From: Candidatus Saccharimonadota bacterium | GTDB lineage: Bacteria > Pseudomonadota > Gammaproteobacteria > Enterobacterales > Enterobacteriaceae | Reading direction: 5' to 3' | DNA length: 32,000 nucleotides | Assembly: GCF_964059045.1 (NCBI RefSeq) | Contig: NZ_OZ060402.1 | Span: forward strand, 330,001-362,000 | Part shown: in pieces, positions 2,127 through 30,572 of the stretch | Position numbering within the stretch: the stretch's first letter is position 1 | Layout: each line of letters begins with the position of its first letter | Translations under genes and position numbers: made by a program | Notes under the pieces: model-generated | What the model was told of the DNA's origin: nothing | Seen by the model: the letters and a program-made list of their open reading frames with translations, nothing else | The model's database searches: none

Positions 2127-3569
2127 TTATTCTACAACTAAAATTCTAATTGTATTAGTTTTTCCTATTGAACTCATAACATCTCCTTGAGTAACAATAA
2201 CCAAATCATTTTTAACTAAAAATTTTTGTTCTTTAAGAAGAATAATTGCTTCAGTAGCAGCCACTACTCCTTCTTGATTACTATTAAAATAAACAGGTGT
2301 AACACCACGATATAAAGCTGCTAATTTTAATGTACTATGATGACGAGACATTGCAAAAATTGGCAACCCTGAAGTAATACGCGATGTCATTAAGGCTGTT
2401 CTTCCTGATTCTGTCATAGTAATAATTGCTGTTACACCTTCTAAATGATTAGCTGAATACATTGCTGACATTGCAATAGCTTCTTCGATACTATTAAATT
2501 GTAAATCTAGTCGGTGTCTGGAAACATTAATACTAGGAACTTTTTCCGCACCTTTACAAACTTTTGCCATTGCAATAACAGTTTCTACAGGGTAATTTCC
2601 AGAAGCAGTTTCTGCAGATAGCATAACAGCATCGCTTCCATCTAAAACAGCATTGGCAACATCCATTACTTCTGCTCGGGTAGGTAGAGGATTAATTATC
2701 ATTGACTCCATCATTTGTGTAGCAGTAATGACTACTCTATTTAATTGTCTTGCTTTTCGTATTAAAGTTTTTTGGATTCCAGCGAGAGCTGGATCTCCTA
2801 TTTCCACACCTAGATCTCCTCTTGCAACCATAATAACATCAGATGCTAAAATAATACTTTCCATCACAGATTCTGTTAAAACAGCTTCAGCTCTTTCTAT
2901 TTTTGCTACAATTTTTGCATTACTTCCAGATTCGATTGCTAACTTTCTTGCTTCATTAATATCATCAGCTGATCTTGGAAAAGAAACAGCAAGATAATCT
3001 ACACCTATACTAGCTGCTAATATTATGTCTTTTTTATCTTTTTTTGTTAATGATTTAGCAGATAGTCCTCCATTTAATTTATTAATTCCTTTATTTTTAG
3101 AAAGAAAACCTCCTATTATAACTTTAGTATATATCTTTTGTTTAGTAGATTTAATAACTTTTAATTGTATTCTTCCATCATCTAATAATAAATGATCCCC
3201 TGAAAAAACATCAATGGGCAGTTGTTTATAATCTACTCCAACTTTTTTCTCCGTTCCTTCATATATTCCTAATGTAGAATCTAGCAAAAATTGATCTCCA
3301 ACATTTAAGAATACTTTTTCTGATTTAAAACCTGTAATTCTAATTTTAGGTCCTTGTAAATCTCCTAATAAAGCTACATGACATTTTAGTTTATTCATGA
3401 TTTCAAAAACTTTTTTAGCTCTATTCTGATGTTCTTCTGGAAGACCATGAGAAAAATTCAATCGTAATACGTTTACACCTGATTTTATAATTTTTTCAAG
3501 ATTATTATCTCTATCTGTAGCTGGACCTAAAGTAGCGACAATTTTTGTTCTTCTAAATCTTCTTATCAT
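2127..3569 (-). CDS. pykA: Pyruvate kinase II
   Basis: 480-aa [31 protein letters not shown] matches the E. coli PykA N-terminus almost residue for residue, and similarity runs the full length. Confidence 0.95.
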
Positions 3570-4327
3570 AAATTTATCTCGGTTAATTTTTAAAATATAT
3601 TATAAAAAAAAATAAAAATTATTAAAAAATGACTTAATAATAAGAATTTTTATTTTTATTATTGTTTACATAAATTCATTAATATTATGAATATTCATTA
3701 AAGAATAAAATAACAAGTCTTCTTAATATAATAAAAGTAATATATGATTGCAATAAATCTTATTTTTATTAATTTTAAAAAATATAATTTTTATCAAATA
3801 GATTTAAAAACGATCAAACCTTATTAATCTTATAGATATAGATGAATAAATATAATAAAACAAATTATTGTTTATTCATGGTATATATTTTATGCTCTTA
3901 CTATGTATTACAATAATTTTTTATAATATATAATTATATATCATAACAAAAAAAAAAATATCAATATCAATATCAAAATTCAACTAATGTATATAATATT
4001 AAATTAAATGTTTGTGTATATTTTGACAAGAAAATTATATATATAAAATATATATATAAATTCTCATTAAATAATTTATATAAAAAATAATATATTTATA
4101 TATACAATATATTGATATAAAAAAAAAAAATTATTATTTTTTATCAACTTTTTAAATTTATTTAAATATATATATATATTTATTTTAAAAAAATGAAATT
4201 ATTTTATTTTAATTTTGCAATATGTAAGGAAAATAATAGATTCAAAATTATTTCTATAATCTTATTAAATATATATCATGAATAAAATTTTAAATTTTAT
4301 TTCATATGAAAGGAAAGATGTTAAAAA

Positions 4328-5794
4328 ATGGTAAAAAATATAAAAAAAGGACATGATCTAATTATTTTTGGTGCTAAAGGAGATCTGGCGAAAAGAAAAC
4401 TTATCCCTTCTCTTTATCAGCTAGAAAAAGCAAATAAACTTAATCAAGATACTAGAATCATTGGTGTTGGTCGTGCAGATTGGGATAAACAATATTATAA
4501 ATATATTGTAAGAAAAGCTTTAGAAAATTTTATGACAGAAAAAATAGAAGAATCATTATGGAATAGATTACATAATCGACTAGATTTTTGTAATTTAGAT
4601 GTGAATGAAACAAAAAATTTTTTAAAACTAAAAAATTTATTAGATCAAAAAAAAAGAATTACTATAAATTATTTTGCAGTGCCTCCTAGTATTTATGGAG
4701 CTATTTGCAATGGTTTGGCTTCAGCAAAGCTAAATCTACCTCCTGCAAGAATAGTTATAGAAAAACCTTTAGGTACATCTTTAAAAACATCACAAGAAAT
4801 AAATAATCAAATAGGAAAATATTTTTCAGAATCACAAATTTTCCGTATTGATCATTATCTTGGTAAAGAAACTATACTAAATTTGCTATCTTTAAGATTT
4901 GCGAATCCAATTTTTTATAAAAATTGGAATAATCAAACAATTGATCATATTCAAATTACCGTAGCTGAAGAAATAGGAATTGAAGGAAGATGGGATTATT
5001 TTGATAAAACTGGACAAATGCGTGATATGGTTCAAAATCATTTATTACAAATATTAAGTATTATTGCTATGTGTCCTCCAAATAATCTCAATGCTGATAG
5101 TATTAGAGATGAAAAAGTAAAAGTATTAAAATCCTTACGACTTATTGATGAAACTAATATACAAAAAAATACTGTCCGAGGACAATATACTTTTGGGAGT
5201 ATAAATGGTATATATGTTCCAGCGTATATTAATGAAGAAGGAGCTGAAACAAATAGTAATACTGAAACTTTTGTTGCTATTCGAGTTGATATCGATAATT
5301 GGAGATGGTCAGGTGTGCCATTTTATTTAAGAACTGGGAAAAGATTACCTCAAAAGTATTCTGAAATTTCAATTTTTTTTAAAAATATATCAATGAATTT
5401 ATTTAAAGAATCAATGCCTATTCTGCCTCAAAATAAATTAATTATTCGATTACAACCTAATGAAGGAATTGATATTCATATTTTAAATAAAATACCAGAA
5501 TTAAGTTCTACTAATAATTTAACTAATACAAAATTAAGTTTTAATTATGTAGAAAATTTTAAAAAAAATTGTTTAATCGATGCTTATGAACGTCTATTAC
5601 TAGAAAGCATGAGAGGAGTTCAATCTTTGTTTGTTCGTAGAGATGAAGTAGAAGAAGCCTGGAAATGGGTTGATTCAATTATTCATGCATGGGATCAAAA
5701 ACAAACTCAACCTGAATTATATCAAGCAGGAACATGGGGGCCAATTTCATCTAATAAAATGATTGAAAAAGACAAACGTAATTGGAATGAATAA
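4328..5794 (+). CDS. zwf: Glucose-6-phosphate 1-dehydrogenase
   Basis: 488-aa ORF with the GAKGDLAKRKL NADP motif, RIDHYLGKE active-site motif and EKVKVLKSLR. It is collinear with E. coli Zwf. AAGGAAAG lies upstream of the ATG. Confidence 0.95.
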   Translation: MVKNIKKGHDLIIFGAKGDLAKRKLIPSLYQLEKANKLNQDTRIIGVGRADWDKQYYKYIVRKALENFMTEKIEESLWNRLHNRLDFCNLDVNETKNFLKLKNLLDQKKRITINYFAVPPSIYGAICNGLASAKLNLPPARIVIEKPLGTSLKTSQEINNQIGKYFSESQIFRIDHYLGKETILNLLSLRFANPIFYKNWNNQTIDHIQITVAEEIGIEGRWDYFDKTGQMRDMVQNHLLQILSIIAMCPPNNLNADSIRDEKVKVLKSLRLIDETNIQKNTVRGQYTFGSINGIYVPAYINEEGAETNSNTETFVAIRVDIDNWRWSGVPFYLRTGKRLPQKYSEISIFFKNISMNLFKESMPILPQNKLIIRLQPNEGIDIHILNKIPELSSTNNLTNTKLSFNYVENFKKNCLIDAYERLLLESMRGVQSLFVRRDEVEEAWKWVDSIIHAWDQKQTQPELYQAGTWGPISSNKMIEKDKRNWNE

Positions 5795-6406
5795 TACTTA
5801 TTTTTTTTTTATGAATATTAATTTTAAATTATATTCTAAAATTATAAAAATATAATTATTAATTATAATATTAAATTTTATATATTGAATATAATTAAAA
5901 AAATTATTTAATAAAATTTTTTATAGAATGTTATATAATTCAAATAAAATTTTTATAGTTTCTAAAATTGATCAAGCATTATTTTATTGTTTGATCAATA
6001 AATGTAATTTTTATTGTTTTTAATAAAACATATATTCTATCTATTATTTATTTTAGTTTCTTTAATATAATCATAATAAATAAATAATTATTTAAAAAAA
6101 TAAATAATAGATCAAAATATATATTTTAAAAATTGATTTATATTGTTAGATTGTATTTTACAAAAATAATTTTTTATATTTATGATATTATGCATATAAA
6201 TATTCAATAAAAATATTAAACTAATGGTTTACTATGAATATTTTATTTATTTTTTTTAAATAAATTTTTATATAAAAAAATTTTATAAAATGATTAATAA
6301 TATAATTATTAAATAATTATATTCACAAACATAAATAATATTAATTAATAAATTTATTTTTATAATTTATATTAATTTATTCACTATCTAGGACATAAAA
6401 AATTAT

Positions 6407-7282: not shown

Positions 7283-7382
7283 TATATAAGTTTTTATTAT
7301 TTTTTACAAGATAAAATCTGTTTATTGAGACAATCTCAATAAACAGATTTTATCTTGTAAAAAATAATAAAAACATATATAA
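7282..7382. repeat. 101-bp near-perfect palindrome at the htpX 3' end (giant hairpin; possible terminator or 3' stabiliser)
   Basis: Checked base by base. 7290-7330 is the exact reverse complement of 7334-7374 (41 bp, 3-nt loop 7331-7333). After one A/A mismatch (7289/7375), 7 more pairs follow (7282-7288 with 7376-7382). The outermost pair uses the last base of the htpX stop codon. Confidence 0.85.
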
Positions 7383-7436: not shown

Positions 7437-7488
7437 TTTGTTTTAATTATAAAAAATTTTTAAAAAAAAATATTTTATAATTAAAACA
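7437..7488. repeat. Inverted repeat with 17-bp perfect arms between htpX and cspC
   Basis: ttgttttaattataaaa (7437-7453) is the reverse complement of ttttataattaaaacaa (7472-7488), with an 18-nt A/T loop. It lies immediately upstream of the GC-richer cspC leader. Confidence 0.5.
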
Positions 7489-7489
7489 A

Positions 7490-7640
7490 GTAACAATTTC
7501 TGTTTATGAAAGGCATTATCAAGTTAAAAAATTCAGAGTAAAGACGTTGATTCAACTGATCTTGCCGAATCTTATATTTATGCCTCATGCAGTTATGTTT
7601 CTAATTTTTATAAAAACAATATTTTAAGGAAATTGCAAAA
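7490..7640 (+). promoter_or_regulatory. Putative structured 5' leader of cspC
   Basis: About 150 nt directly upstream of cspC is visibly richer in G/C than every other spacer in the window, for example gaaaggcat...gacgttgattcaactgatcttgccgaatc...atgcctcatgcag. Enterobacterial csp genes are known to carry long regulatory 5' UTRs. No TSS can be seen in the sequence. Confidence 0.35.
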
Positions 7641-7850
7641 ATGGCAAAGATTAAAGGTCAAGTAAAGTGGTTCAATGAATCTAAAGGTTTTGGTTTTATA
7701 ACTCCATCAGATGGTAGCAAAGATGTATTTGTACATTTTTCTTCTATACAAGGAAATGGATTCAAAACACTTTCTGAAGGTCAAAATGTTGAATTTGAAA
7801 TTCAAGATGGACAAAAAGGTCCTGCTGCAGTTAATGTGTTTGCAATATAA
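7641..7850 (+). CDS. cspC: Cold-shock-domain protein CspC
   Basis: The 69-aa [72 protein letters not shown] is nearly identical to E. coli CspC, and closer to it than to CspE. The RNP1 and RNP2 motifs are present. Confidence 0.95.
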
Positions 7851-7890
7851 CTTTATTCAACCTAATTTAAAAAAAACTTGATATATAAAT

Positions 7891-7946
7891 AATAATATTA
7901 AAAAAGCCTTTGCTGAAAAATTTGCAAAGGCTTTTTTAATATTATT
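7891..7946 (+). terminator. Rho-independent-type terminator hairpin after cspC (hairpin A)
   Basis: The 23-bp perfect stem pairs aataatattaaaaaagcctttgc (7891-7913) with gcaaaggcttttttaatattatt (7924-7946). The core gcctttgc/gcaaaggc is followed by TTTTTT and preceded by AAAAAA, giving a bidirectional form. Confidence 0.75.
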
Positions 7947-7995
7947 CAAACTAAATTATTTTTCAGCATAATTTAGTTTGAATAATATTAAAAAA
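7932..7995. repeat. Second hairpin (B) that overlaps the 3' arm and U-tract of the cspC terminator
   Basis: 28-bp perfect arms at 7932-7959 and 7968-7995 flank an 8-nt loop, ttttcagc. The left arm reuses 7932-7946 from hairpin A. aataatattaaaaaa occurs as a direct repeat at 7891-7905 and 7981-7995. Confidence 0.6.
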
Positions 7996-24211: not shown

Positions 24212-26005
24212 ATGAATACAGTAATCAATTCATCAATTAATGCAATACATGATATACAAATGTCTTTAAATAAAAATATTAAAAATGTAGAAAATATTAA
24301 TACATCTAACATTAATATTAAAAATGTAAATAATGATCCAAAAAATGAAAAATCAAACATTGATAGAACAAATTTAGATAAAAATCGCAATCCTATCTAC
24401 TACTCAGAATCTCCTAAAAAAATAAACGATCCTGACCAAGAAGAAGAAATGAATGAAATCGATGAAGAAGAAATGAATTTTACTGATGAAGAAGAAATCA
24501 ATGAATATAGTGAAAAAAATGATAATACTGAATTATTAATAAAAAATGTATATCATTTAAATTCTATTCAACAATCTGAAGAAGCAGAATGTATTAAGAT
24601 AAATGAACTTAATACAATATTAGAAAAACACCAAAATATATTTTATAAATTTATCCCAGAATTTCATTCTTGTGTTAAAGCGGCAATTAAAGACAAGATT
24701 GGTACGCATTTTAGTCCAAACACAATATCATCTGCTCAAAAAGTTATACAAGAATTTCAAAGTCTTAATAAAGATTTAAATTTTTTATATAATAAAATTA
24801 ATTATAGTATAAATTATTATGTTATGAGAATCAATCAAATTATTAATTCTATTATCAATATCAATAAATCTATTCAAGATAATTTATATTTAAAACAATC
24901 AAAAGACATTGATAAATCGAATGATTTACAAAAATTTTTACAATTAAGAACAAATAAAATTAATCAATTAAATAAAATTATTGGAACTGAAGAAAAAATA
25001 CAAGATAATAATTATATTTTGACTATTAATAATAAATTTAATTTAATTCATAATTTACACACCAATAAATTAATTGTTGCTGAAGATGAATACTATGATA
25101 ATCAATTTAGTATAGGATATATTGAACCAAAAAATGAAAAAATCATATTAATAGAAAGATTAATAACTACCGGTGTATTAGGTGGACTATTAAAATTTCG
25201 TCATGATACATTAAGTCACGCAAAAAGTAAAATTGGTCAGTTAATAGTTAATTTTACATATAGTTTTAACGATCAAAATAAATCTGGTTATGATATTAAC
25301 AATCGTGATGGAAACAATTTTTTTTCCAAGATTGTGCCTGATGTTAAACCTAATAAAAATAATCAATCAGATATATTATTAATTTCTGCATGGAATGATT
25401 CTAGTATTGCTAAACCAGAACAATATAAATTAACATTTGTTAATTCTAATCAATGGAACATCAAAAAAATTTCTGATAATAAAAATATTGATTATATAAA
25501 AATTGATTTAAATAAAAATACATCATGTATCATATTTGATGGAATAAAAATAAAATACCCAAAAGATAAATTAATTAATAATGATCAATACATTGTAAAA
25601 ACTCAAGATGATATCATTAATAAATTACATGTAGGAGCAACAACTTCTACTAAAATTGGTTTATATAAAAATTTTTTTGATACTGAAGATTATTCATTTA
25701 ATGCTCAAAATATAATTGCTTTAAATGATGGAATATTAGTAGAACACAAAGAAACATTAAATGATTCATATGATAATTTGAAAAATCAAATACAAAAAAA
25801 AATAGCAATATTAAGTTTAAATCATAAACAAAAAAAATCAATGACAAAAGTATTAAAATATCATAAAGTTAAAAAACCTAATCCTATTAATTTAGATGAA
25901 ATATATAAAGACACTACTGATTTACATAATAGTTATATGGCTAATACAAAAGTATTAAAAATCGAAAATAATATTGAAGATCAAATAATAAATATATTTA
26001 ATTAA
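24212..26005 (+). CDS. flgK: Flagellar hook-associated protein 1 FlgK (divergent, with an insertion)
   Basis: The central TTGVLGGLLKFRHDTL...IGQLIVNFTYSFNDQNKSGYDINNRDGNNFF and the C-terminal LDEIYKDTTDLHNSYMANTKVLKIENNIEDQIINIF are collinear with E. coli FlgK. The start is set at the ATG at 24212, which has AAGGA 5 nt upstream. The track ORF starts at TTG 24179. Confidence 0.8.
   Translation: MNTVINSSINAIHDIQMSLNKNIKNVENINTSNINIKNVNNDPKNEKSNIDRTNLDKNRNPIYYSESPKKINDPDQEEEMNEIDEEEMNFTDEEEINEYSEKNDNTELLIKNVYHLNSIQQSEEAECIKINELNTILEKHQNIFYKFIPEFHSCVKAAIKDKIGTHFSPNTISSAQKVIQEFQSLNKDLNFLYNKINYSINYYVMRINQIINSIININKSIQDNLYLKQSKDIDKSNDLQKFLQLRTNKINQLNKIIGTEEKIQDNNYILTINNKFNLIHNLHTNKLIVAEDEYYDNQFSIGYIEPKNEKIILIERLITTGVLGGLLKFRHDTLSHAKSKIGQLIVNFTYSFNDQNKSGYDINNRDGNNFFSKIVPDVKPNKNNQSDILLISAWNDSSIAKPEQYKLTFVNSNQWNIKKISDNKNIDYIKIDLNKNTSCIIFDGIKIKYPKDKLINNDQYIVKTQDDIINKLHVGATTSTKIGLYKNFFDTEDYSFNAQNIIALNDGILVEHKETLNDSYDNLKNQIQKKIAILSLNHKQKKSMTKVLKYHKVKKPNPINLDEIYKDTTDLHNSYMANTKVLKIENNIEDQIINIFN
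24434..24508 (+). repeat. In-frame roughly 24-bp tandem repeat (3 copies) encoding acidic D/E-E-E-E-(M/I)-N units inside flgK
   Basis: The units are gaccaagaagaagaaatgaatgaaatc, gatgaagaagaaatgaattttact and gatgaagaagaaatcaatgaatat. Together they encode DQEEEMNEI DEEEMNFT DEEEINEY. Confidence 0.75.
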
Positions 26006-26040
26006 TAACATTGATTAAAATTCAATTCTCAAAAATAAAA

Positions 26041-26080
26041 TTGTCATATATATTAATTCTTTAATTAATATATATGACAA
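26041..26080. terminator. Hairpin between convergent flgK and rne (candidate bidirectional terminator)
   Basis: The 18-bp perfect stem pairs ttgtcatatatattaatt (26041-26058) with aattaatatatatgacaa (26063-26080) around a 4-nt loop, cttt. A-rich sequence flanks both sides. Confidence 0.6.
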
Positions 26081-26158
26081 AACTATCAAATTTAAAAATA
26101 AAATATAATCATGATAATCATATTTTTAATTTTTAAATTTTATTATAATAATTTATTT

Positions 26159-29083
26159 TTATATTTTAAAAATTGGAGAACTTGAACGATTTTTTGCTAC
26201 ATGTCCTCCTGCAGCTCTATATTTTTTGTTGATTAATATTGAATATGATTTTATTTGATGAATATATAATTTTTTATTTTGCATATAAAATGAAATTTTT
26301 GTGACTGGAGCACTAGATTGTTCTTTTTTTTTAATTTTTTTAAAACATTTTTTTTTAGAAATTGATAATATTGATTTATTTGAATTTTTTTTTATAAAAT
26401 TTAATCGATTACAATGATTAACTGGATAATTATTTAAAAAAAATAATTTTTTTTTGTTATTATTTATTAATGGTTGAAAGAAATTCTTTTGATAACCATT
26501 ATTTTTAATAATTTTTTTATTTGATAAAATTAAATTTGTTTTTTTTTGAATTACACTATTTTTGATTTTTTTTAATACTAAATTAATTTGATAATAATAT
26601 ATCTCTAGTAAAATTAATAAACTAATACAATCTAAATTATTTTTTAAACAAGATTTAATAAATGATAATTGAGGATATTGTATCAATGTCAGTGCTAATT
26701 TTTGTTCAGGAGATAATACAGAAAGCATACTAGATGATATGACCTTTTTTAATTGTTTTTTATAATAATTTTTATTTTCATAACGGATATTTAATAAAAT
26801 ATTTTTTAATAAATTAAATTGATTAAAAATAATATTTATAGAATTGATATTATTATAATTTCTTTTTTGATTTATTTTTTTAATTTTTAATTTTTTAGAT
26901 ACTATTGATGAATTTATTAGTAATGGAAAACCATTATTTTTTGTTACTAATTGTAATTGTTTGCTTTTTAATATATTATTTTTTTTAAAATATTTTTTTT
27001 TATGTGCTATTAAAAATAAATTATATTCTTTAAGTGTATTTAAATATTTTAAAATATTATAATTTTTTTCCAATGAAAAATATTTATTTTTTAATATTTT
27101 TTTATAAAAATTATTTTTTTCAAAATTATTAATATAATTTATTTTTTGTACATCATTTAAATCAAATATTTTTGCATGTATTTTAAATGGATTTTTTTGA
27201 TTGGATTGAATAATTAAATTTTTATTTTGATATTGTTTTTTACTTTTAAAAAAAATAATTTTTTTCCAATTAAATTTATGTAATAAATATTTTTTATGTT
27301 TTTCTATATTTTTATTTTTAATTTTTTTTATATTAAAAAATAATATATTATTAAATAATAATAATATTTTTTTTATAATTTTATTTTTAAAAATAATATT
27401 TTGAATACCAAAAAATTGTTTAATAATTTTTTGGTATTTTATTTTAAAAAAATTTTTTTTAATATTGAATTGCATATTAGAAATAGTTTTATCTGAAAAC
27501 ATTTGATATTGTTGTTGTTTTTTTTCTAACATTGATTGTGTTGAATAACTATTTTGTTTATGATAATATAATTTTGATAAATTATAACTAATTTTTTTTA
27601 TATTTTCTCCTTTTCGAATACGAGTAATAGAATAATTAGGTGTTTCAATATGTTTGCTAGGAACAATAATAGTTCTTCCACCTAGTTGACGTTTTTCAAT
27701 ATTATTAACTTCACTTCGTTTCTCATTTAATAAATAACATGCGATTTCTATAGGAACAATAGCATGAACAGCATAAGTATTTTCTTTAATAGCTTCTTCT
27801 TCTATTAATCTTAATATAGATAGAGATAATGATTCATTATCTCTAATAGATCCAGTGCCACTACATCTGGAACAAACATGATAACTAGATTCTCCTAAAG
27901 ATGGACGTAATCTTTGACGAGACATTTCCAATAATCCAAAACGAGAAATATCACTAATTTGAATACGTGCTCTATCATGTTTAACAATTTCACGTAATTT
28001 GTTTTCAATAGATTTTTGATTCTGAAATAATGTCATATCAATAAAATCAATAACTATTAATCCTCCTAAATCCCGTAATCTTAATTGACGAGCAATTTCA
28101 TAAACAGCTTCTAAATTTGTATTAAAAGCAGTTTCTTCAATATCTAATCCTTTAGTCGAACGAGATGAATTAACATCAATTGCAGTTAATGCTTCTGTAT
28201 TATCAACAACAATTTCACCTCCTGAAGGTAATCTCACTTCTCTTTTAAATGCTGAGCTAATTTGTGATTCAATTTGATAATAACTAAACAAAGGTATTGA
28301 ACCCTTATATAACTTTATTTTACTAGAGAAATCTAACCTTCCTAATAAATGAATATATTGATAAGCAAATTCTAGAATTTTAGGGTTATCAATTATAATT
28401 TCACCTATATCTTGACGTAAATAATCTCGAAAAGAACGTAAAATAATATTACTTTCTTGATGTAATAAAATAGGGGATGAATTTATTTTCGCTAGATCTT
28501 GAATTGAATTCCATAATTGTAATCTAAAATTTAAATCCCATTGTAAAATTTCAATTGATTTATTCAATCCTGCTGTACGAATAATAATTCCCATATTTTG
28601 AGGTATAGATAATGATAGTATGATTTCTTTTAATTTTATTCTATCAAGTCCTGTAATTCTTTTCGATATTCCTATTGTTTTATTATTATTTGGCATAAGT
28701 ACTAAATAACTGCCAGCTAAACTAATAAAAGTAGTTAATGCTGCTCCTTTATTACCTCTTTCTTCTTTATCAATTTGAACTATTATTTCTTGTCCTTCTT
28801 TTAAAAAATTTTTTATATTAAAATTTGAATCTAATGAATAATCTTGAGATAAATAACTATGAGAAATTTCTTTTAATGGTAAAAATCCATGTTTTTCTAA
28901 TCCATAATCAACAAAAACAGCTTCTAAACTAGGTTCAATTCTAGTAATTTTACCTTTGTAAATATTAGATTTTTTTTTCTCTTGACCTGGAATTTCAATA
29001 TCTAAATCGTATAATCGTTGTCCATCTACAAGAGCAACTCGTAATTCTTCTTTTTGAGTAGCATTAATTAACATTCTTTTCAT
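26159..29083 (-). CDS. rne: Ribonuclease E
   Basis: The N-terminal half is collinear with E. coli RNase E from MKRMLINATQKEELRVALVDGQRLYDLDIE. It includes the S1 domain, the catalytic region (VIDFIDM) and the Zn-link CSRCSGTG. The start is set at the ATG at 29083. The track ORF carries a 33-codon upstream extension with no homology. The C-terminal half is N/K/I-rich low complexity. Confidence 0.92.
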   Translation of the reverse strand: MKRMLINATQKEELRVALVDGQRLYDLDIEIPGQEKKKSNIYKGKITRIEPSLEAVFVDYGLEKHGFLPLKEISHSYLSQDYSLDSNFNIKNFLKEGQEIIVQIDKEERGNKGAALTTFISLAGSYLVLMPNNNKTIGISKRITGLDRIKLKEIILSLSIPQNMGIIIRTAGLNKSIEILQWDLNFRLQLWNSIQDLAKINSSPILLHQESNIILRSFRDYLRQDIGEIIIDNPKILEFAYQYIHLLGRLDFSSKIKLYKGSIPLFSYYQIESQISSAFKREVRLPSGGEIVVDNTEALTAIDVNSSRSTKGLDIEETAFNTNLEAVYEIARQLRLRDLGGLIVIDFIDMTLFQNQKSIENKLREIVKHDRARIQISDISRFGLLEMSRQRLRPSLGESSYHVCSRCSGTGSIRDNESLSLSILRLIEEEAIKENTYAVHAIVPIEIACYLLNEKRSEVNNIEKRQLGGRTIIVPSKHIETPNYSITRIRKGENIKKISYNLSKLYYHKQNSYSTQSMLEKKQQQYQMFSDKTISNMQFNIKKNFFKIKYQKIIKQFFGIQNIIFKNKIIKKILLLFNNILFFNIKKIKNKNIEKHKKYLLHKFNWKKIIFFKSKKQYQNKNLIIQSNQKNPFKIHAKIFDLNDVQKINYINNFEKNNFYKKILKNKYFSLEKNYNILKYLNTLKEYNLFLIAHKKKYFKKNNILKSKQLQLVTKNNGFPLLINSSIVSKKLKIKKINQKRNYNNINSINIIFNQFNLLKNILLNIRYENKNYYKKQLKKVISSSMLSVLSPEQKLALTLIQYPQLSFIKSCLKNNLDCISLLILLEIYYYQINLVLKKIKNSVIQKKTNLILSNKKIIKNNGYQKNFFQPLINNNKKKLFFLNNYPVNHCNRLNFIKKNSNKSILSISKKKCFKKIKKKEQSSAPVTKISFYMQNKKLYIHQIKSYSILINKKYRAAGGHVAKNRSSSPIFKI

Positions 29084-29202
29084 GATATCAATCTCTCGTA
29101 TTATTTTAAAATTATAATACATTTTAACAAACAAAATATTATTTAATTCAAGTCTAAATATTGAATGTTTTAAATAATACAATTATATATTTTTATTGTA
29201 TT

Positions 29203-29354
29203 ATTTTATTATTTTTTTAAAAAATTATTTTTGAAAAAGTAGAATACTAATAATATGCTCTCTAGTAATATAATTTTAAAAAATTACATTACTAGAGAGC
29301 ATATTATTAGTATTCTACTTTTTCAAAAATAATTTTTTAAAAAAATAATAAAAT
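29203..29354. repeat. 152-bp near-perfect palindrome in the rne-rluC divergent spacer
   Basis: Verified base by base. 29203-29277 is the reverse complement of 29280-29354 with a single mismatch (A29270 opposite C29287). That gives 67 perfect bp, one mismatch, then 7 bp, with a 2-nt apex. Confidence 0.9.
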
Positions 29355-29615
29355 TTATCTTTTTAAATTATATAAAATATTAAATATCAATAATAACATT
29401 ATTTATTAACCAAATAAGAATTGTTAATATTTTTTATTAATCAATTGATTTTTTTCAATAAAAATATTGCAATAATTAATTAAATTTTAAATTTGACTTA
29501 AATTAATTAATTGAATATTATAAAAGACATATTGTAAAATATTTATATTAAAAACAATACTAAAATGAAAATTTTTTATTTGAAATATACATATTTTTAT
29601 AAAAATTAAATATAT

Positions 29616-30572
29616 ATGAAAAAAATAACTAGTAAAGTAGTTTTTATAAATGTTACTGAAGATATGACACCACAAAGAATTGATAATTATTTATTTTCTA
29701 AATATAAAAAAATACCAAAAGATATGGTTTATAAAATTTTAAGAAAAGGTAGAATTAGAATTAATAAAAAAAGAATACTACCAAGTTATAAATTAAAAAA
29801 AGGAGATATTATTCGCATTCCTCCTATTCAAACCAATGATATAAAAACATATCCAAAAATAATAAACAATCATGAAATAATAAAATTATCAAATCAAATC
29901 TTATTTGAAGATGATTATTTAATTATTATTAATAAACCATCTGGAATTGCAGTACATGGAGGCAGTGGTGTGAGTAATGGAGTTATAGAAAAATTTAGAT
30001 TATTAAGACCTGATTCAAAAAAATTAGAATTAGTACACAGAATTGATAAAGAAACTTCTGGAATTTTAATTATCTCTAAAAAACATTTTGCTTTAAAAGA
30101 ATTACATCAACAATTAAGAGAAAAAAAAATAAAAAAAAAATACATTACATTTGTTCATGGTCAATGGCCATATAATACTAAAATAATAAAAGTCCCTTTA
30201 TTAAAAAAAAAGGGTATCTCAACAATGAATAAAAACCAAGTATATGTAAATAATTCCGGAAAAATTTCAGAAACATATTTTAAAATTATAAAAAATTATC
30301 CAAAAACTACTCTAATTTCTGCTTTTCCAAAAACTGGACGTACTCATCAAATTCGCGTACATGCTTTACATGCAGGCCATCCAATAGTATTTGATCATCG
30401 ATATGGTTCCAGTCAGTTAGATTTAGAAATCAATAAAAACAATCATTTATCTAAAAGATTATTATTACATGCACAAAGTATAACGTTTATACATCCTTAT
30501 TCAAAAAAAAAAATGTATATAGAAGCTCCATTAGATCATACATTTAAACAATGTTTTGATCTATTTAATTAA
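29616..30572 (+). CDS. rluC: 23S rRNA pseudouridine synthase RluC
   Basis: The 318-aa ORF has an S4-like N-terminus (QRIDNYL...YKILRKGRIRINKKR) and the catalytic HRIDKETSGILII. TGRTHQIRVHALHAGHPIVFDHRYG is also present. It is collinear with E. coli RluC and divergent from rne, as in E. coli. Confidence 0.92.
   Translation: MKKITSKVVFINVTEDMTPQRIDNYLFSKYKKIPKDMVYKILRKGRIRINKKRILPSYKLKKGDIIRIPPIQTNDIKTYPKIINNHEIIKLSNQILFEDDYLIIINKPSGIAVHGGSGVSNGVIEKFRLLRPDSKKLELVHRIDKETSGILIISKKHFALKELHQQLREKKIKKKYITFVHGQWPYNTKIIKVPLLKKKGISTMNKNQVYVNNSGKISETYFKIIKNYPKTTLISAFPKTGRTHQIRVHALHAGHPIVFDHRYGSSQLDLEINKNNHLSKRLLLHAQSITFIHPYSKKKMYIEAPLDHTFKQCFDLFN

Follow-up and report, generated by a model that had tools for sequence, protein, structure and literature searches.

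A lineage-specific 152-bp palindrome beside rne in the Buchnera of Eriosoma grossulariae, probably formed by template switching

Our analysis of a 32,000-nucleotide (nt) stretch of endosymbiont DNA (hereafter, the window) established that a 152-bp near-perfect palindrome in the spacer between the divergent genes rne and rluC is genuine and lies far outside chance expectation. We consider it probable that this palindrome is a young, most likely neutral inverted duplication, specific to the Buchnera of Eriosoma grossulariae, which was created by template switching during replication and is tolerated in a repair-poor genome.

The RluC protein encoded in the window (GC content, 22%) matched RluC of the aphid symbiont Buchnera aphidicola (Eriosoma grossulariae) at 100% identity. 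Pfam domains supported the gene identities and the divergent arrangement assigned in the original prediction, namely, rne, encoding RNase E (26159-29083, minus strand; 974 aa from a conserved ATG; domains S1, RNase_E_G, and RNase_E_G_Thio), and rluC, encoding 23S rRNA pseudouridine synthase C (29616-30572, plus strand; domains S4 and PseudoU_synth_2), with flgK upstream and rpmF and fabD downstream of the pair. RluC identity to the nearest relatives was 60% for E. lanigerum and about 60% for E. harunire and Tetraneura ulmi, and HtpX identity to E. lanigerum, the best value among the available relatives, was 74%. When a genome collection was scanned with the N-terminal domain of Rne, only free-living relatives were found among the matches listed, at ≤75% identity.

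By repeat search and direct reading, the palindrome was found to consist of a left arm of 75 nt on the rne side (29203-29277) and a right arm of 75 nt on the rluC side (29280-29354), which are 99% complementary across a 2-nt gap and differ at a single position (A29270/C29287), exactly as had been described from the sequence at the outset. The earlier distances of 120 nt to the rne ATG (29083-29081, minus strand) and 262 nt to the rluC ATG (29616) were likewise correct. The two central nucleotides (AA, 29278-29279) lie within the run TTTTAAAAAA, and such a center would be compatible with a palindrome that initially had no spacer and then underwent a 2-nt homopolymer slip. Complementarity ends abruptly at 29202 and 29355, and direct reading of the flanks revealed no target-site duplication. 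GC content is native (12.5% in the palindrome versus 10.3% in the remaining spacer). At the nucleotide composition of the spacer itself (89% A+T; pairing probability, 0.403), at least 74 of 75 pairs are expected with P ~2.7e-28 per center and ~1e-22 across the whole window. The hairpin score of the palindrome was 70, whereas the maximum in 100 block shuffles of the window was 21.

We compared the orthologous rne-rluC spacers of six other Buchnera (E. lanigerum, E. harunire, Tetraneura ulmi, strain APS, and two further Buchnera), and the palindrome was absent from all six, including the three nearest available relatives. The longest stems in these spacers were ≤21 nt and contained mismatches. 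Spacer length ranged from 331 to 616 nt, compared with 532 nt in the window; the longest, that of Buchnera OZ060372.1 (616 nt; 2385-3000 of the retrieved segment), carries no palindrome, so spacer length at this locus varies widely and independently of palindromes. The blocks that the window does share with its closest relatives all lie outside the palindrome, i.e., the rne start region, the Shine-Dalgarno block, and the likely rluC promoter. More specifically, MKRMLINA and ATGAAAAGAATG in the rne start region are kept in the alignments of seven Buchnera (window included), and the Shine-Dalgarno sequence GAGAG (29097-29093, minus strand) with its adjoining small hairpin GTATTAT..ATAATAC (29098-29120) is the sole part of the rne leader kept in relatives, AATAATACGAGAGA being common to the window, E. 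lanigerum, and E. harunire. For the rne leaders of E. lanigerum and APS, folding gave no advantage over shuffled controls (z = +1.0 and -0.94, respectively), and a consensus fold of the start-proximal leader across seven Buchnera yielded no consensus pairs. The original prediction had named this comparison of orthologous spacers as a check, with absence from close relatives counting against a regulatory role, and the palindrome is indeed lacking from the nearest available genomes, themselves distant. As these relatives share only about 60% (RluC) or at best 74% (HtpX) protein identity with the window, the absence denotes non-conservation and does not date the event.

Two observations concern the rne gene itself. 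The C-terminal, noncatalytic half of rne (window 26001-28000) has a GC content of 14 to 18%, versus about 22% window-wide, a composition equal to that of noncoding spacer, yet its frame is open. The rne gene is called at 974 aa in both the window and E. lanigerum, 447 aa in E. harunire, and 417 aa in Tetraneura ulmi; in E. harunire, flgK is separated from rne by 1.4 kb without a gene call, and in Tetraneura ulmi the flgK-rne gap is just 162 nt. The two loci lie at 2777-5567 and 4254-5669 of the respective retrieved segments. From these short calls, RNase E appears to have a degraded or deleted C-terminal scaffold half in some Eriosomatinae Buchnera. In addition, the convergent flgK-rne spacer of the window contains a perfect hairpin (26041-26080) with 18-nt arms (TTGTCATATATATTAATT) and a 4-nt loop; its score of 18 equals the chance ceiling, and it could terminate both genes.

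The rne-rluC palindrome has company. Four further hairpins in the window exceed chance (7283-7381, 7438-7489, 7891-7946, and 7932-7995), and all are absent or much shorter in relatives. Hairpins scoring at least 19 numbered 5 in the 32-kb window, versus 1 in 101 kb of related Buchnera sequence of equal GC content (binomial P = 0.004). To compare these siblings, we used the htpX-cspE-yoaE region of E. lanigerum and E. harunire. The palindrome at 7283-7381, located right after the htpX stop codon, has arms of 48 nt if 1 mismatch is allowed and of 54 nt if 3 are allowed. The distal block of its right arm and the adjoining flank (TTATCTTGTAAAAA..AAAAC(C)ATATATA) occur in both E. harunire and E. 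lanigerum at an equal distance from the htpX stop, with a similarity score of 27 against a shuffle maximum of 23, whereas the region of the left arm is unrelated in the two genomes; the left arm would thus be a new reverse-complement copy, one that evidently replaced older sequence of similar length. The palindrome upstream of the cspE leader (7438-7489) has 24-nt arms with 1 mismatch, and the end of its right arm (TAATTAAAACAA) is also found in relatives. Further downstream, the cspE terminator (7891-7946; 23-nt perfect arms) adjoins a second hairpin (7932-7995; 28-nt perfect arms). The terminator is the sole structure shared with relatives, in which its stem is ~13 nt rather than 23 perfect pairs. 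In the second hairpin, the loop (TTTTCAGC) corresponds to ancestral ATTTTTCAG, and the stem arose from an insertion of 22 nt, not present in E. lanigerum or E. harunire, whose sequence is reverse-complementary to a downstream stretch. At both 7283-7381 and 7932-7995, then, an ancestral arm is accompanied by a reverse-complement copy, which on this alignment evidence is the footprint of replication template switching.

Two features of the cspE locus deserve mention in their own right. The terminator shares its 3' arm with the hairpin with 28-nt arms, so the 15-mer AATAATATTAAAAAA occurs three times in alternating orientation (window 7891-7995). The cspE gene together with its long 5' leader (7498-7854) matches the Rfam cspA thermoregulator family RF01766 at 50.7 bits (E = 8e-12), short of the gathering score of 78, and the leader is strongly conserved in the three Eriosoma Buchnera, unlike the spacers around it.

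Such palindromes also arise elsewhere. In the Buchnera of E. lanigerum (OZ060395.1), the divergent serS-trxB spacer contains a perfect 130-bp palindrome with 60-nt arms and a 10-nt loop (1387-1516 of the retrieved segment). It is missing from the orthologous spacer of E. harunire and is unrelated in sequence to the rne-rluC palindrome, which indicates recurrent births rather than an inherited or mobile element. Its distances to the flanking start codons (141 nt to serS and 265 nt to trxB) are similar to those in the window (120 nt to rne and 262 nt to rluC). The two largest palindromes both lie in divergent spacers with similar geometry, a hint of preferred positioning for which neutrality offers no explanation.

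In the mechanism that we favor, the nascent strand would briefly change template during replication and copy ~75 nt as reverse complement, whether from the complementary strand or from itself, and a switch back would complete a perfect palindrome in one event. Subsequently, one substitution (29270/29287), probably joined by slippage of 2 nt within the A run at the center, would have produced the present sequence. As template switching requires, the reverse-complement copy adjoins its source, with 2 nt between the arms, and the edges are sharp; that perfect stems can be made in a single step by this route has been described previously (Monttinen and Loytynoja 2022, PMC8794818). No ancestral arm of the rne-rluC palindrome was found, its similarity to its own flanks and to relatives' spacers being at background level, so a template-switch origin is assigned to it by analogy with the sibling palindromes. 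A likeness of CTCTCTAGTA to the rne Shine-Dalgarno block was dismissed as chance (p about 0.02 to 0.03, uncorrected, among six tests), and the signal was not reproduced against the window's own rne leader (p = 0.15).

Taking the Buchnera substitution rate of 1.1e-7 per site per year that is cited in PMC3276549, 1 mismatch in 75 pairs would put the age of the palindrome at about 6e4 to 1e5 years, or 1e4 to 1e5 years as an order of magnitude, provided that it is neutral. At that cited rate, the estimated age is far below that of the split from relatives whose HtpX is merely 74% identical. Alternatively, the arms could have been kept near-perfect by selection for pairing or by repeated correction, in which case they need not be young.

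The argument that long palindromes are a liability at the DNA level is taken from E. coli. Published gene inventories suggest that Buchnera, being devoid of RecA and of most functions in recombination and hairpin processing, would tolerate a 152-bp palindrome that would be borderline-unstable in E. coli. In the genomes surveyed in 2005, both Buchnera and Blochmannia lacked RecA and nearly all homologous-recombination proteins (PMC1193525). The original prediction had proposed that persistence of the palindrome reflects the repair repertoire of the genome, a proposal that fits both this published RecA loss (PMC1193525) and the palindromes of Blochmannia (PMC3017870).

Whether the palindrome could affect rne depends on where transcription starts, and the candidate sites differ in their consequences. 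A likely rluC promoter (TTGACT-N17-TATTAT; 29493-29521, plus strand), found by consensus scan, lies beyond the palindrome toward rluC, and its hexamers and spacing recur in E. lanigerum (5922-5950 of the retrieved segment); being downstream of the palindrome, it would give rise to an rluC mRNA that does not include it. In the rne direction, a promoter-like sequence upstream of the palindrome (TTAACA-N18-AATAAT; 29427-29398, minus strand) has 10 of 12 consensus matches and is not conserved; if used, it would place the palindrome inside an rne leader of ~300 nt. Another promoter-like sequence, a consensus match within the right arm (TTGAAA-N17-TATGCT; 29326-29298, minus strand; mirrored on the plus strand at 29231-29259), would, if used, lead to transcription of a single arm, and the long hairpin would not form. 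A perfect TATAAT, resembling a -10 hexamer, is present between the palindrome and rne (29187-29182, minus strand), with no good -35 hexamer to accompany it; its use would leave the palindrome untranscribed. At 89% A+T, a consensus promoter scan is uninformative, and the sole site shared with E. lanigerum is the rluC promoter. Our literature search on transcription starts near rne and on RNase III in Buchnera returned nothing usable.

The original prediction envisaged that the palindrome, if part of the rne leader, forms a duplex of about 75 bp resembling an RNase III substrate. In the full scenario, an upstream promoter would yield an rne leader of ~300 nt whose duplex RNase III would cut, thereby making rne expression RNase III-dependent. 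We regard this scenario as unlikely. An RNase III substrate calls for at least about 20 bp of perfect dsRNA in a transcript of a cell that has the enzyme. The E. coli leaders of rnc and pnp contain long stems that are RNase III targets; rnc persists in Buchnera strain APS; and a perfect stem of ~75 bp resembles an RNase III substrate more than an RNase E-sensing hairpin. Folding in silico of a putative rne leader containing the palindrome (-108 kcal/mol, z = -16) produced the fully paired stem, independent of the Shine-Dalgarno-proximal hairpin, as anticipated for a transcribed element, and the promoter-like sequence at 29427-29398 is suitably placed above it. But equally good promoter-like sites occur within the arms, and the perfect TATAAT lies below them. 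Moreover, Rfam gave no match to rne5 (RF00040), either at the gathering threshold or, over 28950-29700, at E values up to 10; the matches obtained were sub-threshold miRNA-hairpin models, which merely mirror a perfect hairpin and represent no relevant family. With the palindrome missing from all six other Buchnera, the relatives' leaders unstructured, and rne5 unmatched, the proposed regulatory role for rne was unsupported. Judged from these comparisons, the palindrome is evidently no conserved rne regulator, and any effect on rne would be a by-product that depends on the transcription start. Were rne transcription to start above 29354, the leader would gain an autonomous 75-bp stem, with RNase III cleavage expected; a start within the palindrome or on its rne side would leave the element as untranscribed DNA upstream of the promoter.

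A broader proposal is that the E. grossulariae and E. lanigerum lineages recurrently make palindromes of 130 to 152 bp, preferentially about 120 to 140 nt upstream of one divergent gene, and that these are retained, either as supercoil-driven cruciforms or as an RNase III-cleaved module of the rne leader. We view such retention as quite improbable. Neither possibility, transcribed stem or cruciform, is backed by conservation across the six Buchnera spacers.

Taken by itself, a DNA-level cruciform between divergent promoters that absorbs supercoils or couples rne and rluC expression seems to us very unlikely. Divergent transcription generates negative supercoiling, as established in the twin-domain model, and under such supercoiling an AT-rich perfect palindrome could extrude as a cruciform. 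The palindrome is situated between the conserved rluC promoter and rne, its center is all A/T, its single-stranded DNA form folds at -67 kcal/mol (z = -20), and the 130-bp palindrome of E. lanigerum likewise sits in a divergent spacer. These are two examples only, however; the other sibling palindromes of the window sit between codirectional genes, and the rne-rluC palindrome is not conserved.

An origin of the inverted copy in faulty assembly or sequencing is highly improbable. Both genome assembly and Sanger sequencing can be disturbed by palindromes (PMC3017870), but this palindrome is internal, with collinear conserved sequence on both flanks, and its one-base arm difference and asymmetric center are not expected from an artefactual fold-back. 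Furthermore, the window contains four more palindromes, two of them with an ancestral arm, and the Tetraneura ulmi assembly, apparently from the same project by its accession series, has none in 13 kb.

Finally, a miniature mobile element, a REP/MITE-type repeat, or an intrinsic bidirectional terminator is barely credible: hairpin-shaped repeats are common in bacterial spacers and the innermost 20 bp were picked up, on the minus strand, when terminators were scanned for, but within the window the arm core occurs in the two arms only, the arm is absent from metagenome and viral collections and gives just a weak AT-rich match in a plasmid collection (76 nt at 78% identity), the palindrome is unrelated to that of E. 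lanigerum and lacks a target-site duplication, and no U-tract flanks the stem. Thus, REP/BIME/MITE or foreign origin failed on the uniqueness of the arm within the window, the lack of duplication, and the lack of collection copies beyond the weak plasmid match; an intrinsic terminator, which should have a short GC-rich stem, a 3- to 8-nt loop, and then a U-tract, behind a gene, failed on its weak T-run, a stem that runs for 75 bp, and flanking genes that diverge and leave nothing to terminate.

The usual picture of a Buchnera genome is one of stasis and freedom from repeats. If the palindrome is, as we favor, a young template-switch duplication, then a lineage-specific cluster of palindromes with traceable ancestral arms suggests that template switching still reshapes the spacers of a ~600-kb genome, and the rne-rluC palindrome would be a concrete case of a long stem arising beside essential genes in a single step. 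The finding reveals no new mode of RNase E regulation. Proof that the palindrome is transcribed and processed would raise the importance of the finding, as would a genome-wide mutational burst traceable to the loss of one particular exonuclease or hairpin nuclease. Should the retention of such palindromes be true, a genome without almost all transcription factors would be creating new cis-regulatory structure via template switching.

Comparison with known systems places the palindrome apart from the leader elements of ribonuclease genes. The rne 5' UTR element of E. coli (RF00040) is likewise upstream of rne, in the same divergent rne-rluC layout, but it consists of several imperfect hairpins, whereas the palindrome is one perfect 75-bp stem and is not conserved among Buchnera. 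If transcribed, the palindrome would resemble the leader stems of E. coli pnp and rnc in forming a long duplex in the 5' leader of a ribonuclease gene; those stems are conserved, in contrast to the Buchnera palindrome. A further parallel is the template-switch correction of quasi-palindromes (Ripley model; PMC8794818), in which a reverse-complement copy of adjacent sequence likewise creates or perfects a stem with sharp edges. Both a replacement (7283-7381) and an insertion (7932-7995) are represented among the sibling elements; the events in that literature mostly involve a few to tens of bases (PMC8794818), compared with the 75-nt copy here. In a bacterial survey, Buchnera aphidicola BCc had the top density of short inverted repeats (PMC10434271), and our literature searches found no report of such long intergenic palindromes in Buchnera.

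The most similar elements are those of Blochmannia, which carries 6 to 20 intergenic palindromes of 62 to 136 bp per genome (Williams and Wernegreen 2010, PMC3017870). When the definition used there is applied (arms ≥30 bp, gap ≤20 bp, ≤3 mismatches, intergenic), the rne-rluC palindrome qualifies, having 75-nt arms, a 2-nt gap, and 1 mismatch, and lying wholly in the spacer. Both hosts are obligate insect endosymbionts with AT-rich genomes, and the Buchnera host, like the Buchnera genomes surveyed in 2005, presumably shares the lack of RecA; the Blochmannia palindromes are nearly all intergenic, amount to a handful per genome, and differ between related genomes. Williams and Wernegreen reasoned that such palindromes should decay without selection (PMC3017870). 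At 152 bp, the palindrome described here is longer than any listed for Blochmannia, and the direction of copying, a point not addressed in the Blochmannia paper (PMC3017870), could be traced for the sibling elements in Buchnera.
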